A stretch of 64,000 nucleotides of DNA from Terriglobia bacterium (GTDB lineage: Bacteria; Acidobacteriota; Terriglobia; Bryobacterales; Bryobacteraceae), in NCBI GenBank assembly GCA_963835255.1, contig CAWIFY010000022.1, forward strand, positions 35,784 through 99,783, in the 5' to 3' direction. Within the stretch, counting starts at the first letter, position 1; each line of letters opens with the position of its first letter. Below are positions 32,525-37,559 of the stretch, piece by piece. The position numbers were made by a program, and so were the translations under genes. The notes beneath the pieces were generated by a model, which saw nothing but the letters and a program-made list of their open reading frames with translations, was not told where the DNA came from and searched no databases.

Positions 32525-33578
32525 TCTCAGAAGCAAAATTCTGTTAGTAGCCGTCGGATGGCTCGCGCTCATCTCGGCGTTGCATGGTTACCTGAACGTG
32601 AATTGGGCGGCCGTTCTCAACGATTATCGCCCGCCCGCGAAACGAAAAATTACGGTTGCCTACATCCCCGTCACGTGCCAGCTTACCTGCCCGGTGACGG
32701 ACTACATCTCGAAATTCTCAGAAAGCGGCGAGCTATTTCTGCCCCGCATGTTTCAGGGCTTCCCCGAAATGAAGGAAGCTATCATCTCTAATAAAGTGCA
32801 GGCCGCGTTCATCGTCGCTCCGATGGCGATCGCGCTCAAGGCGCAGGGTGTTCCTATAAAGGTTGTTTATCTTGGCCACCGTTACGGCAGCGCGGTGGTT
32901 GTCCGGAAGGACGGCCCAATCAAAACGTTCGCCGATATGCGAGGCCGCACGGTAGCGATTCCGACTCGTTTTTCTGACGAGAGATTAATGCTCTTTCGTG
33001 CCATGAAGATCTGGGGCATCAAGCCGGGCGAGATCAACATGGTCGAGATGGCGCCTCCGGATGTTTCGGGCGCCCTTGCTGCTGGGGCTATCGACGCGTT
33101 TTCAATGGGCGAGCCATTTCCCTCGCAGGCAGAACTAGCGGGCTACGGTCGAGTTCTCTTTCAAGCACGCGAATACTGGCCTGACTACATGTCATGTATT
33201 CTGATCGTTCGCCAGGACTTGATCGATTCTCGTCCGGACGTCGTGCAGGTCTTGGTGGATGGCATTGCGCGATCGGGTCTCTGGCTAGACAAGAGCAAAC
33301 CTCATCGAGAAAATGCAGCTGATTTCGTGGGCCGTTTCTATTACCATCAAAGGCCTGCCCTGCTGCGGTTCGCGCTCACGCATCCCATGGACCGGGTGAT
33401 GTATAGCCCACTTGCACCGCGAAAGCGTGATTTCGATCTAGTTCGAGACATGATGATGGAAACGGGCGTCCTGGACAAGAAAATCGAGTTCAATGAGTAC
33501 ACGGATACGCGGTTTTCAGATAAAGCGAGCATTCAGACTGCGTGGAGATATGAGGCGGGAATTGCGGCGGCCAGATAG
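32451..33578 (+). CDS. ABC transporter substrate-binding protein (NMT1/SsuA-like), membrane-anchored
   Basis: N-terminal TM anchor ILLVAVGWLALISAL, then an NMT1-like fold (ITVAYIPVT...VVYLGHRYGSAVVVRKD...GRTVAIP). The start is uncertain. The only in-frame start is TTG 32451, which overlaps the permease by 74 nt. Confidence 0.75.
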   Translation: MGWLSIYASEDSKKSNPFNGDSAISLRSKILLVAVGWLALISALHGYLNVNWAAVLNDYRPPAKRKITVAYIPVTCQLTCPVTDYISKFSESGELFLPRMFQGFPEMKEAIISNKVQAAFIVAPMAIALKAQGVPIKVVYLGHRYGSAVVVRKDGPIKTFADMRGRTVAIPTRFSDERLMLFRAMKIWGIKPGEINMVEMAPPDVSGALAAGAIDAFSMGEPFPSQAELAGYGRVLFQAREYWPDYMSCILIVRQDLIDSRPDVVQVLVDGIARSGLWLDKSKPHRENAADFVGRFYYHQRPALLRFALTHPMDRVMYSPLAPRKRDFDLVRDMMMETGVLDKKIEFNEYTDTRFSDKASIQTAWRYEAGIAAAR

Positions 33579-33583
33579 AGGTG

Positions 33584-33610
33584 GAATTGCAGGGCAGCAG
33601 GCCGCAATTC
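33584..33610. terminator. hairpin between convergent genes (weak terminator candidate)
   Basis: GAATTGC (33584..33590) pairs with GCAATTC (33604..33610), and there is an inner GGC/GCC pairing. It sits between the SBP stop and the DUF3179 stop. No adjacent U-tract. Confidence 0.25.
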
Positions 33611-33632
33611 AGCGATTTGAGACCACGGTTAT

Positions 33633-34916
33633 TTATCGAATTTTTTGTTTGACTCCGTAAACGGTGGTCTCCACGTTGTAGTTCCGCCAGTCGAACCAGT
33701 AGTCCTTGATGACGTCGACGTGATTCAGGCAAAGCCCTTTTGATTGTCCAGCAACTGCGCATCCTTGGAAATCCCATTGACTGCCCGTCTGCGCATCCAT
33801 GAGCAGCGCGCCGGATCGCAGCTCATCTGGCCGTGTATCGGTTGGATTGTCAATAATCCGGTAAAACTGCGGCGTGCCCTCTACCCCGGGAATACGCTCC
33901 CGGAAGGCGCGCACGGAACGATTATCACCACCCACGACGAGCAGAATCGGCTCTGTTCCAACGCGATCTTGAATCAGCTTCTCTCTTAAAACAGCCCCGT
34001 AAGGGAAAGCGCGGCTTGCCCCAAAAGCGTGGATCCCGAGCATCAGATCGCGCGGCTTGAGTCCAGCCTGGGCGTAGCTCACAACGGTAGGAGCTTTCGC
34101 CATTCTTACATCCCAATTCTTGGGAGCGTACTCGTGTCTAAAGCGGATAACATCGTCAAGTACCGTGCCATTAGGCTGCTCCATTTTCCAGAGCGAAAAA
34201 GTAAGTTCATCCGCGGAGACCAGCGGCAGACGACGCCCCGCAAGCGGTCCAGAAATTGCAATACCGGTTATCTGTTGCCAGTAAGTTCCGGTCTGCTCAT
34301 CGCGCATCAAGAAATTCTGGTTATTGATGCCAGCGAGATGAAAACGTAGTTGCATTCCATCGATAGTTCTTTGAAACACCAGACCGGTGTGACAGAGCGT
34401 TCAATAAGTCGCTATGATAGAGACCCCGCCAAGCACGTCGTTGATTATATGGTGATACGACATGCTCCGGATTGGATAAGCTCTCGCTGCTCGGCCCATA
34501 TGGACCGCAATTACCTCCTCGCCGCCGTCCAATTTCGCTTTGGAAGAGGGAGAGAAAGCGGGACCATCCAAGGGATGAAACATGAGCTCATAGATATTCA
34601 CGCGCGACAAGATGCCGAAAACAACAACCAGCAGAGCACATACTGAAGCTGCTACTTTACTCCCCATACGATGGTTTTGCCGCCAGGAGAAGACTAGCAA
34701 CGCGAATGCAGCGGCGACGAAAATAATCTGAAGAAAGGGCCGGATGCGCATCACGGTTAACGCGAGAGCCAGTTCACCTCGGCCCTGATATCGAAACGGG
34801 CGAATAACATACAGTGGATAGGCGAGCACGAGGAACGAAAGCAGGACGCAGATAGTCAGCCAGAGAAGCGGTTTACAGACCAATCTCCTATTCGTCGAAA
34901 GCATGGTTCCCTCCAC
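33633..34916 (-). CDS. membrane-anchored DUF3179-family protein with in-frame TGA (candidate selenocysteine) at 34401..34403
   Basis: ORFs 34401..34916 and 33633..34379 are in the same frame and are separated only by one TGA. Read through, the sequence is ..ARAYPIRSMSYHHIINDVLGGVSIIATY-[TGA]-TLCHTGLVFQRTIDGMQLRF..MRDEQTGTYWQQITG.., which matches the DUF3179 core (..ARAYP...H.v.ND..GG.P..vTYCPLC.tg.vF.R...G..l.F...D.eT.S.W.Q.tG). Confidence 0.6.
34376..34390 (-). promoter_or_regulatory. SECIS-like stem-loop downstream of the in-frame UGA
   Basis: The mRNA reads UGA ACGCUCUGUC ACACC-GGUCU-GGUGU. That is a 5-bp stem starting 11 nt after the UGA, with an apical loop beginning GG. Outer UG/CA pairs are possible. 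It resembles the E. coli fdhF SECIS apex (GGUC loop) in position and frame. Confidence 0.4.
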
Positions 34917-35040
34917 TGTGCGCGATCAGCTCACGCCTCTGAGCGAGTATGACAGCAATCCGAGAACCTGCCATCGACCGAAAGTTCGGTTCAAGGCTAC
35001 CCCGTGCACCAGGATTCCTACGCGCTAATTCTCTGTTTTT

Positions 35041-35065
35041 TGGCGGTGAGGGTGGGATTCGAACC
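35041..35065. repeat. 25-bp direct repeat of the tRNA-Ser 3' end (distal att site of island 1)
   Basis: TGGCGGTGAGGGTGGGATTCGAACC is identical to 42781..42805. The flanking sequence cannot form a T-stem, so this is a fragment and not a tRNA gene. Confidence 0.8.
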
Positions 35066-35550
35066 ATGAAGCGCCTAGCATGCTCTGTAACTTGTAGATC
35101 GCACGTTGCTGCTAATGCCAGAATCGCCATCAATTTCAAGAACCATTGCCCGATATTGCCCGGTGATCGGTTCTGGTTCCCCAGCCTGCCCTGCTCGCGC
35201 AAGCCGAAAAGCAGTTTAGCCGCCTGAAGTGCCCAGGATCAAAGACACCAAAGAGTCGCAACCAGTTCAGCCGGATTTTTCTTCAGAAAACTAGGAGAAT
35301 TCTCACAGCCCGAGCTCACTATTTTTCTGACCGATGCGCAACAGCATCGCTCAGAAGGTGCAGAATGTGTCCTTGTAGTGCGCGGTTCTGCCGAAAATGC
35401 TAGGATGCTCACGGGCTGGCCGGCATCGGGAAACCTGTGTCGTCCTGCCTAGAATGCGCCACAGCGTTTAAATGCGACTTAAGAGGGGTTGAAGTGCGGC
35501 TACTTGCGCTTCGCTTCTGCTGAGTGCCTTTCCATTCGATTATGAGGGGA

Positions 35551-35880
35551 TTATCCGTCGCGTTCCTTCTCACGTTGCTCGGTGCGGTATTCGTGAATCA
35601 CGCGGTCTACGTATTCCATCTTCTCTTCCTCGGTCATGCGGTCGGGGTCAAGTCCCTCGGCTTGCAGGCGGGCGCGGAACCGGGCCTCGCCGTAGGCGCG
35701 TAAGTGTTCCCATGATGCCCGCCGCTCCCGGCTCTGCCGCATCAGTTCGTCCGTGGCCTTCTGGCCGATATACTTGGGCAGCACTTCCGCCGCAGGCCGC
35801 GCCCGCTTCATGTCTTCCGCCGTGCATTCGGGGTTGTCCTCGTCAATGCGTTCGGGGTCGGGGGTTTCGGTGTCGCTCAT
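35551..35880 (-). CDS. hypothetical protein (BrnA-antitoxin-like N-terminal motif)
   Basis: 109 aa and acidic. DEDNPECTAEDMKRARPAAEVLP resembles the NPExT.EDF.RA.P motif of BrnA-family proteins. It is the third gene of the DUF433/PIN-like operon. Confidence 0.45.
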   Translation of the reverse strand: MSDTETPDPERIDEDNPECTAEDMKRARPAAEVLPKYIGQKATDELMRQSRERRASWEHLRAYGEARFRARLQAEGLDPDRMTEEEKMEYVDRVIHEYRTEQREKERDG

Positions 35881-36283
35881 ACCCGTATCTTCCTCCTGGC
35901 CGGGTTCGCGGAGGGCAGACGAAAGGGGCTAGAGCCGCCGTCCCTTTCGCGGCTTCCGGGGGTAATGGCATCTCGATAAAGCCATAGCTTCCTGGCGTTG
36001 CCGCATCGACGGCTGACGCTATCTCGGCCTCGTGTTGCTGCAAAAGCCGCCAAATGTTGGAGCCGAGGGCGACCAAGGCCAACTTCCGGCCCGTGAGGTT
36101 CTGTTGGTAGCGAATGTTCTGGTCAGCCGTAACCATAACGTCAAACCCTGCTTGTTCCGCATTCAGAAGCTCGCGGTTTTTCAATCGCTCCGGCCACTGC
36201 ATTTGGGCGACCGTGCGAACTTCATGTTCCGGCAGGAAGCGGCGTACAGGGACAGGGACGTTTTTATCGAAGAGGATGCGCAA
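35843..36283 (-). CDS. DUF5615-like PIN-fold putative toxin
   Basis: MRILFDKNVPVPVRRFLPEHEV...GFDVMVTADQNIRYQQNL is the Mut7-C/DUF5615 pattern. Its start overlaps the DUF433 gene. Confidence 0.65.
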   Translation of the reverse strand: MRILFDKNVPVPVRRFLPEHEVRTVAQMQWPERLKNRELLNAEQAGFDVMVTADQNIRYQQNLTGRKLALVALGSNIWRLLQQHEAEIASAVDAATPGSYGFIEMPLPPEAAKGTAALAPFVCPPRTRPGGRYGYERHRNPRPRTH

Positions 36284-36695
36284 CGCGGTGGCTCTTTACG
36301 TAGGTCAACACCGCCTCGACGCGCTCCAGCGAAATTTCAAACAGTTTCGCGATTTCCGCCGCGCTCTCTCCGTAGTCGGCATTATCGACAATGGCACTCA
36401 CCGGCATACGGGTGCCGCGCAGCACCGGAGCGCCGCTTTGGATTTCAGGGTCGATTTCGACGAGCGGACACTGTGACCAGTCGATTTTCCCTTTGCCACG
36501 GCTCCACCATTTGCCGGCCTGCGCCTCGCCCGAGAGTTTTTGGCGGCGCTCCCGCAGACGGCGTTCCATCGCATCGCTTACCAGTTCGTCCAACGTGATA
36601 TGTTCCTGCTGCGCCACTTCCGCCGCCCGCGCAAGGAGCTCCGGGGGGACGGAAGCATGCAGGTTTTTTTCGGGATTGGTCACGTTGCTGCTCAT
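36264..36695 (-). CDS. DUF433-domain putative antitoxin with N-terminal RHH-like extension
   Basis: PEIQSGAPVLRGTRMPVSAIVDNADYGESAAEIAKLFEISLERVEAVLTY is the DUF433 core. It pairs with the downstream PIN-like gene. Confidence 0.7.
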   Translation of the reverse strand: MSSNVTNPEKNLHASVPPELLARAAEVAQQEHITLDELVSDAMERRLRERRQKLSGEAQAGKWWSRGKGKIDWSQCPLVEIDPEIQSGAPVLRGTRMPVSAIVDNADYGESAAEIAKLFEISLERVEAVLTYVKSHRVAHPLR

Positions 36696-36847
36696 TTCTC
36701 TATTTTCGCTGCCGCGAGACTAGCAGAACATCCCGGTTCGGTAAAGCCGGATGCGCCGCCCCGGCTTCGCTTCTCCTGATCGGCGGTTCCGTCCGTTCAA
36801 ACCGCATTCCTGAGAGTGGGGCGGAATACCTCAAAGCGACTGTCAAG

Positions 36848-36912
36848 TTTGGGCAGCGTTACTGCCAACTTCTCTCAGTAAACTGCCAAAAATCGCTTGC
36901 AAACTTGGCAGT
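36848..36912. promoter_or_regulatory. iteron/operator-like ACTGCCAA repeats upstream of ORF 36961
   Basis: ACTGCCAA occurs at 36861..36868 and 36882..36889 (21-bp spacing) and inverted as TTGGCAGT at 36905..36912. There is also an imperfect TTTGGGCAG at 36848..36856. Confidence 0.45.
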
Positions 36913-36960
36913 ATTGGTGCAAGTTTCCTGTCACTTTACTGACAAAAAAAGGCAACGAAA

Positions 36961-37518
36961 ATGGCAGAAGACTTCCAAGAAGGCAAGGAGGAAACGGCAG
37001 TTCTCAAACGATGGGGATTTCCGATCTACGAAACGAATCCCAGCGTAGGCGCATTCCCAGTAAGAATCAAGCGCTCGAATATGAAAGCCGAACTCAGCGT
37101 TTACATGGTCGCTCCCAGTTCAGGTGATGTGATCGGCCGCGGCGCTTTCGGTTTCGTGGAAGAGAAGCAAGTGGACGGTGAAGAGTTCGTCAAGATCTAC
37201 CTTGATGGCGTGCGCAAGTATGGCGAGGTGAAAAAAGCCGGCGCATTGCTATTCGAGTTTGTCTACTGGGAACTCAGCGGCAAAGATGCGAAGGATAAGG
37301 ACACGGTGGTGCTTAATTACCTGCTAGCTAACCGATGGAAGCAAGACCTCACCGAGCACACCTATTTTAGGTGTAACGTGCGATTCATGTTCAACGATGA
37401 TCGCCTGATTCTTGGCAAGAGTTACCGGCGGCGGCGACCGCAGGAGATGATGCAGGAAGAATTGCCGCTGTTGGAGGGTATGCGAGCACTTCCGGCTCCC
37501 ACGGATAGGCAGACATAA
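36961..37518 (+). CDS. hypothetical protein, possible RepL-like/wHTH DNA-binding protein
   Basis: 185 aa. The segment EEFVKIYLDGVRKYGEVKKAGALLFEFVYWELSG parallels the NFVKAYI..L..L..GGKKLKIVNYIL region of RepL-type replication/maintenance proteins. This is a weak by-eye similarity only. Confidence 0.4.
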   Translation: MAEDFQEGKEETAVLKRWGFPIYETNPSVGAFPVRIKRSNMKAELSVYMVAPSSGDVIGRGAFGFVEEKQVDGEEFVKIYLDGVRKYGEVKKAGALLFEFVYWELSGKDAKDKDTVVLNYLLANRWKQDLTEHTYFRCNVRFMFNDDRLILGKSYRRRRPQEMMQEELPLLEGMRALPAPTDRQT

Positions 37519-37559
37519 AGACGCGCCATATTGGAGTATTCTGGGCAGCTTCTGCTAGT

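Follow-up and report, generated by a model that had tools for sequence, protein, structure and literature searches.

An in-frame UGA followed by a candidate SECIS element in an unannotated DUF3179 gene of Bryobacterales

On the minus strand of the window (the whole stretch of 64,000 nucleotides analysed here), two open reading frames, 34916..34401 and 34379..33633, lie in the same frame, and the TGA at 34403-34401 is their sole separator. This arrangement had been pointed out in a preliminary description of the locus, and the sequence, the list of open reading frames and the translation all confirmed it. Read through the TGA, the junction is ..GGVSIIATY-*-TLCHTGLVFQRTIDG.... Translation had previously been taken to start at a GTG (34916); an ATG at 34904-34902 is the likelier start, with a GGAGG 5 nt upstream of it (34910..34914, minus strand) that, as read from the sequence, may act as a Shine-Dalgarno-like element. 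From this ATG to the TAA at 33635-33633, the complete gene (33633..34904, minus strand) would encode a putative selenoprotein of the DUF3179 family. The read-through product has 423 residues, and the UGA is codon 168. Its N-terminal part (34593..34868, minus strand) is predicted to form a membrane anchor. Using the Kyte-Doolittle scale with a 19-residue window and a cut-off of >1.6, we found three clear hydrophobic segments (residues 13-35, 54-75 and 82-104), one fewer than the four transmembrane segments described earlier.

For the Pfam search, Cys was put in place of the UGA. The product matched DUF3179 (PF11376) with 192.9 bits (gathering score 27 bits; E 1.1e-56) over residues 112-413 (33666..34571, minus strand) and profile positions 7-292 of 292, and the read-through protein had no match in NCBIfam. 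The Pfam match covers both sides of the TGA; therefore, a single domain spans the stop. When 53 full-length Cys forms were aligned, the invariant pattern of the family emerged: YHH..ND, then Y-C-x-x-C-H-x-G, then two C-terminal Cys. Within this alignment Y-C-T-L-C-H-x-G is invariant, as are the two C-terminal Cys and several His; the residues numbered C82, C85 and H86 in the alignment are identical in 53/53 sequences. The window protein has all the corresponding positions: H151 and H152, U168 (the UGA, 34401..34403, predicted to be the Sec codon that opens U-T-L-C-H), C171 (34392..34394, the partner Cys of the UxxC), the neighbouring H172 (34391-34389), C382 (33761-33759) and C392 (33731-33729). 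As for the use of UGA elsewhere in the window, the 33 long non-overlapping reading frames end in TGA (12), TAG (12) or TAA (9). Since TGA terminates 12 of the 33, a genome-wide reassignment of UGA is unlikely, and a local recoding event is required.

The closest relatives identified by protein search (69-81% identical) are without exception fragments (about 236-251 aa) that correspond to the C-terminal 56-59% of the query. Gene callers yield such C-terminal pieces when the same stop is present; one of these fragments, P0001 (240 aa), comes from the present gene itself. The full-length relatives (about 380-454 aa, 44-49% identical) are of the Cys type, and a partial Cys-type sequence, P0002, reaches 61% identity. 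Cys-type homologues read TYCTLCHTGLVW at the UGA site, so that the UGA falls precisely on the column of the first Cys in CxxC. The peptide in these homologues is YCTLCHTGLVW, so that the motif of the relatives is YCTLCH, not the YCPLC that had been expected.

We next considered the distribution of Sec and Cys at this column across genomes. One genome per GTDB species was scanned and the best 80 related loci were taken (53-77% identical); nearly all of them come from metagenome-assembled genomes (MAGs) labelled Bryobacterales, Bryobacteraceae or Terriglobia (Acidobacteriota). The window's own genome was outside these 80 loci and was added as the 81st sequence. TGA was present at the same column in 81/81 Sec-type sequences (the 80 loci and the window), and Cys in 80/80 Cys-type loci (TGC in 70, TGT in 10). 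Together with the 53-protein alignment, this bears out the original proposal that the UGA stands for the first Cys of a CxxC. Both comparisons suggested in the preliminary description were also in its favour: in the PF11376 alignment the UGA falls on the conserved Cys column, and 80 of the 80 related loci carry TGA at this column along with the invariant hairpin codons described below.

Codon-position entropies were computed on the 81 sequences. Upstream of the TGA (29 codons) the means for codon positions 1, 2 and 3 were 0.56, 0.40 and 1.38, and downstream (codons +12 to +44) they were 0.31, 0.21 and 1.09. It follows that purifying selection acts on both halves as parts of one translated frame, which excludes a pseudogene, a sequencing error or an unrelated pair of ORFs. 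A lone in-frame stop in an otherwise intact gene, next to a hairpin of unexceptional energy, could point to a pseudogene with a simple nonsense mutation, or to a mistake in sequencing or assembly. However, 80 genomes of different species, each assembled independently, have this TGA as well, the gene has no other disruptions, the third-position variation on either side of the stop fits purifying selection, and wobble positions are frozen specifically beside the TGA. We regard this explanation as extremely improbable.

It could also be that the gene is truly split, with translation stopping at the UGA and restarting at a GTG (34379) to yield a membrane fragment of 167 residues and a soluble fragment of 248 residues; public databases at present annotate the gene in this way. 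Gene callers do predict C-terminal pieces of 240-248 aa in many assemblies (e.g. MBV9308897.1). The break, however, would fall inside the invariant YCTLCH, between two strands of one modelled beta-hairpin, and the seven codons from the TGA to the GTG (TLCHTGL) are fully conserved as protein, whereas the residue that follows lacks a conserved start context in most orthologs. In addition, the Cys forms are single polypeptides, and the stop is always TGA, never TAA or TAG, in the 81 sequences, for which a split gene offers no explanation, nor does anything else other than recoding. We thus consider a split gene very unlikely.

Downstream of the UGA, the hairpin ACACC-GGUCU-GGUGU reported in the preliminary description is indeed present in the sequence (34376..34390, minus strand). 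We predict it to be the apex of a SECIS, based on folding and on the bacterial SECIS (bSECIS) consensus: a 5-bp stem is formed by ACACC (34390-34386) and GGUGU (34380-34376), closed by a 5-nt loop, GGUCU (34385-34381). The stem begins 10 nt past the UGA and the GG of the loop lies 16 nt after it. With a weak lower stem, the full predicted hairpin extends over 34369..34397 (minus strand), with a minimum free energy (MFE) of -8.1 kcal/mol in the window.

The hairpin lies within a stretch that, by codon counts in the Sec-type sequences, is nearly invariant at the nucleotide level (TAT TGA ACG CTY TGY CAC ACC GGT CTG GTG T; 34376..34406, minus strand). Third-position entropy in this stretch is 0.15, versus 1.1-1.4 in its flanks. 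The hairpin codons CAC-ACC-GGT-CTG-GTG are 100% fixed in 79 Sec-type loci, wobble positions included, and so is TAT-TGA. As a control we used the 80 Cys-type loci, which were drawn from metagenomes and encode the same residues. There, Tyr is encoded by TAC (52) or TAT (28), His by CAT (42) or CAC (38), and Gly by GGG (38), GGA (28), GGC (9) or GGT (5), while Val is spread about evenly over four codons and Leu over five codons. Synonymous codons thus vary in the Cys forms and are frozen in the TGA forms, which indicates a constraint that acts on the RNA, and only when the UGA is present.

In orthologs with Trp at position +9, the stem is 7 bp long and there is an added lower stem, and the mean MFE of the orthologs is -15.0 kcal/mol; at -8.1 kcal/mol, the hairpin of the window is the weakest of the 81. 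It does not fold better than shuffled sequence (z = 0.11 for 81 nt and 0.39 for 48 nt). Yet the proven SECIS of E. coli fdhF is also unremarkable in the same shuffling test (z = -0.67), and hence folding energy cannot decide the matter. The case that the hairpin is probably not a product of chance is one that rests on comparison, not on energy. No clear compensatory covariation was seen: the upper stem is invariant, so covariation cannot be shown there, and in the lower stem, pairing is limited to 53-69 of the 81 sequences. RNAalifold of the orthologs retained the 5-bp core only. The covariance-model search proposed at the outset for the hairpin region gave nothing, as Rfam models had no match in 33400-35600 even at E <= 10.

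The hairpin was also compared with the bSECIS consensus (PMC13188914), which describes a loop of 3-9 nt with a G within its first two positions, a stem of 4-16 bp, a spacing of 16-37 nt from the UGA and an MFE of -7.5 kcal/mol or lower. The loop GGUCU has 5 nt and begins with GG; the stem has 5 bp in the window and 7 bp in most orthologs; the MFE is -8.1 kcal/mol in the window and -15.0 kcal/mol on average in the orthologs. The spacing, 15-16 nt, is at the lower edge of the range. This agreement and the freezing of the hairpin codons only in TGA forms support the SECIS-like character that had been attributed to the element.

We searched the window for Sec machinery. No tRNA-Sec was found in its 64 kb by ARAGORN and Rfam, whose matches were tRNA-Glu and tRNA-Ser only. 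With SelA, SelB and SelD of E. coli MG1655 as tblastn queries, there was no match to selA, selB or selD in the 64-kb window or in 160 fetched related loci. Three selenoprotein families have been counted in the phylum Acidobacteria (Zhang et al. 2006), and Occallatibacter riparius is named in the literature as a Sec-utilising bacterium; that Acidobacteria include Sec-utilising organisms supports the Sec reading. We infer that the UGA is decoded in a SelB-dependent manner, and that the sel genes are elsewhere in the genome.

Alternatively, a pathway other than SelB/Sec might decode the UGA, for instance with a suppressor tRNA (tRNA-Sec-like, or an allo-tRNA) that has a UCA anticodon and brings in Cys or Ser. 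In that case the role of the conserved hairpin would be to assist this other pathway, or simply to delay termination. Such tRNAs have precedents: allo-tRNAs that are possible nonsense suppressors have been reported from Acidobacteria, and a selC* tRNA(Cys) with an opal anticodon occurs along with a dedicated SelB* in Deltaproteobacteria (Mukai et al., PMC5389517). Nevertheless, selC* was not found in Acidobacteria, and allo-tRNAs are sporadic and tied to toxin-antitoxin systems (PMC5389517), unlike the UGA described here, which is fixed in 80 species. Furthermore, the element matches the SECIS consensus and has the GGUC loop of fdhF, the UGA occupies a classic position of Cys/Sec interchange in a family already catalogued as selenoprotein, and the 64-kb window contains no such tRNA. 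This alternative therefore appears distinctly unlikely.

Immediately upstream of the gene, the segment 35041-35065 repeats without mismatch the final 25 nt of a tRNA-Ser(CGA) located at 42781-42870. We considered whether this segment could be a tRNA-Sec or an allo-tRNA and rejected it, as it is a duplicated tRNA-Ser 3' end, the remnant of an att site. The two copies of the tRNA-Ser 3' end are 7,740 bp apart and flank a degraded integrated island. It encodes a DUF433 protein and a DUF5677 protein as well as the truncated N-terminal domain of an integrase, and next to the DUF433 gene there is a small ORF that has no Pfam match. This island has no bearing on the Sec finding, and a neighbouring tRNA is not typical of the gene: 21 related loci contained 0 tRNAs. 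Downstream, in convergent orientation, there are genes for an ABC permease and an NMT1-like binding protein. Across the 81 loci, no neighbour was common to more than 16; the commonest, found in 16/81, is an ORF that by eye is AhpD/CMD-like. Clusters of neighbours obtained initially were rejected as artefacts of alternative-frame ORFs in G+C-rich DNA. Since the neighbours are not conserved, they provide no operon-based clue to the function of the gene.

Taken together, the TGA in 81/81 sequences, the coding character of both sides, the TGA-specific codon freeze and the agreement with the SECIS consensus support the UxxC selenoprotein originally suggested. On this comparative sequence evidence, the locus very probably carries a genuine Sec codon and SECIS, in a gene that belongs to a known selenoprotein family but is not annotated as a member. 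A single gene would encode a membrane-anchored DUF3179 protein in which the UGA at codon 168 is recoded to Sec. Just past the UGA, the mRNA would fold into ACACC-GGUCU-GGUGU and act as a bacterial SECIS; SelB with Sec-tRNA(Sec) would bind this hairpin and deliver Sec once the UGA is in the ribosomal A site. The hairpin would be made from the H-T-G-L-V codons of the conserved peptide, through fixation of particular synonymous codons, and the product would have U-x-x-C-H where its relatives show C-x-x-C-H.

Aiming to gain insight into the function of the protein, we examined an AlphaFold2 model of P0002, the nearest of the Cys forms. The model is confident (mean pLDDT 90.6) and beta-rich, with a beta-beta-alpha-beta-beta pattern that occurs twice, and the CxxCH is located at the turn between two strands. 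With Foldseek, part of the model gave weak, partial matches to Rieske/ISP-like structures (8hn2_A, CntA 6y9d_A and the NirD-like 3c0d) over about 105-115 columns, with probability 0.93-0.98, E 0.07-0.2 and a TM-score of about 0.5 by target but only 0.19 by query. Rieske/ISP-like domains and the model both have Cys and His at the tips of beta-hairpins; the Rieske motif CxH...CxxH, however, is absent from the window protein, whose motif is CxxCH. There was no Pfam match to a Rieske family at E <= 10, the two domain halves searched separately returned DUF3179 only, and a profile search of the PDB gave no sequence homologue. The resemblance of the predicted fold to Rieske domains is a lead, not a classification. 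The invariant C/U-T-L-C-H motif resembles the CXXCH at which haem is attached in c-type cytochromes, whose haem-binding fold is extracytoplasmic and mostly helical; in the model, however, it sits at a beta-hairpin turn of a beta-rich structure, and Pfam searches gave no match to cytochrome families.

With low confidence, we suggest that a beta-hairpin of the protein carries at its tip a selenol/thiol centre with redox activity, in which a metal may assist. Such a centre would join U168, C171 and H172 with C382, C392 and conserved His. A bolder proposal, which we consider rather unlikely, is that the Sec/CxxCH, C382, C392 and the invariant His form a catalytic centre that contains a metal or carries out redox chemistry with the help of one. 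The domain around it would be beta-rich and anchored in the membrane, and part of it would be distantly similar to the Rieske fold; in the extreme version of this proposal, haem may be attached via U-x-x-C-H. If a metal centre were true, DUF3179 would be an unrecognised class of selenium-ligated metalloproteins, abundant in soil Acidobacteria.

The main value of these results is in annotation. Gene callers split or truncate the gene both here and in no fewer than 80 species-level genomes of Bryobacterales, and several Sec-type orthologs are present in nr as truncated proteins of 240 aa (e.g. MBV9308897.1, and likewise P0001). The correct annotation for all of them would be one selenoprotein of 410-425 residues. 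The clade also appears to be a very clean natural case of a SECIS written into the codons of a conserved peptide via fixed synonymous sites, which the matched control set of Cys-type loci makes easy to demonstrate. In other respects this is an ordinary unannotated member, whose family and UxxC position are already catalogued, and it leaves the knowledge on selenoproteins unchanged.

Compared with the SECIS of E. coli fdhF (the sequence used for it matched part of fdhF at 100% identity in 5,413 E. coli records), the predicted element is similarly a hairpin in the coding region directly past the UGA. The resemblance to its apex noted in the preliminary description holds for the GGUC, read as GGU CUG in the same codon phase, but not for the distance to the UGA: the loop is one codon closer, with GGUC at nt 19-22 from the U of UGA here versus nt 22-25 in fdhF. 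The stem of 5-7 bp is closed by C-G below a 5-nt loop, and there is no counterpart to the bulged U of fdhF. Sequence similarity between the two is confined to the loop, and binding of SelB to the present element is a prediction.

The Cys-type DUF3179 proteins of Terriglobales (P0073, P0093 and P0040, from Tunturiibacter and Edaphobacter) are 45-49% identical to the window protein over their full length and share with it the membrane anchor, the YCTLCHTGLVW peptide (with Sec replacing its first Cys) and the two C-terminal Cys. They differ in having TGC or TGT for TGA, and HTGLV codons without synonymous constraint. The NCBI product name found on Tunturiibacter and Edaphobacter relatives is "DUF3179 domain-containing (seleno)protein".

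The preliminary description was not aware of DUF3179 as an established selenoprotein family. However, tables of selenoprotein families in Zhang et al. 2022 (PMC9312934) and in a 2026 AEM review (PMC13188914) already include DUF3179 (PF11376), with the motif UxxC/T, and both credit Zhang & Gladyshev 2007 (PMC1976440). In the literature examined, experimental selenium incorporation has been reported for no DUF3179 member. The catalogued family (example sequences MBW1804167.1 and MDJ0986319.1) has in common with the present protein the Pfam assignment, Sec as the first residue of UxxC and the existence of Cys homologues, and it was predicted on a like basis, the Cys/Sec pair and a downstream hairpin. 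The family was first found in a marine deltaproteobacterial symbiont, whereas the present clade consists of soil and peat Bryobacterales (Acidobacteriota) and has a predicted N-terminal membrane anchor and a 15-nt predicted SECIS core that is identical in every member of the clade.

Sec-type orthologs of the DUF3179 gene, which carry TGA at the predicted selenocysteine codon, are represented in NCBI nr, JGI and ENA by truncated C-terminal proteins of 216-248 aa. These records are the 240-aa fragment of the window gene itself (P0001), MBV9308897.1 (P0020), and P0121-P0123. Acidobacteriota MAGs thus systematically carry a wrong annotation for the selenoprotein form of DUF3179. We also detected two Sec-type loci (L007 and L059) in MAGs with labels from outside this phylum, namely Solirubrobacteraceae (Actinomycetota) and Verrucomicrobiia. 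The predicted SECIS core in both is identical to that of the other Sec-type loci, and their occurrence under these labels points to bin contamination or mislabelling, or else to horizontal transfer.

Across the 81 Sec-type loci, the sole recurrent neighbour of the DUF3179 gene was an ORF resembling AhpD/carboxymuconolactone decarboxylase, as judged by eye. It was found within 3 kb of the gene in 16 loci (L066 and 15 others), mostly downstream, and is absent from the window. Directly upstream of the DUF3179 gene in the window (35041-35065, minus strand) there is an exact second copy of the final 25 nt of tRNA-Ser(CGA) (GGTTCGAATCCCACCCTCACCGCCA), 7,740 bp away from the tRNA gene (42781-42870, minus strand). 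These tRNA-Ser 3'-end repeats flank an integrated island of about 7.7 kb (35066-42780), which contains a DUF433 protein (36264-36695) with an adjoining small ORF at 35843-36283. The island also encodes an N-terminal SAM-like domain from a truncated integrase (39959-40480), as well as a DUF5677 protein at 40620-41393. Immediately past the tRNA gene, two overlapping minus-strand ORFs (42960-43750) look, by eye, like pieces of one tyrosine recombinase gene that a frameshift has interrupted.

In the AlphaFold2 model of P0002, a partial homolog with Cys at the Sec position, a strand-strand-helix-strand-strand(-strand) pattern occurs twice (residues 44-92 and 201-249), and this repetition suggests that the DUF3179 domain may be internally duplicated; the CxxCH motif is present in the first copy only. 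The corresponding motif, U-T-L-C-H in the window (34403-34389), is invariant in all homologs and formally matches CXXCH, the haem c attachment signature. The DUF3179 protein gave no match to any cytochrome family; together with the beta-rich predicted structure, this makes a cytochrome less likely.
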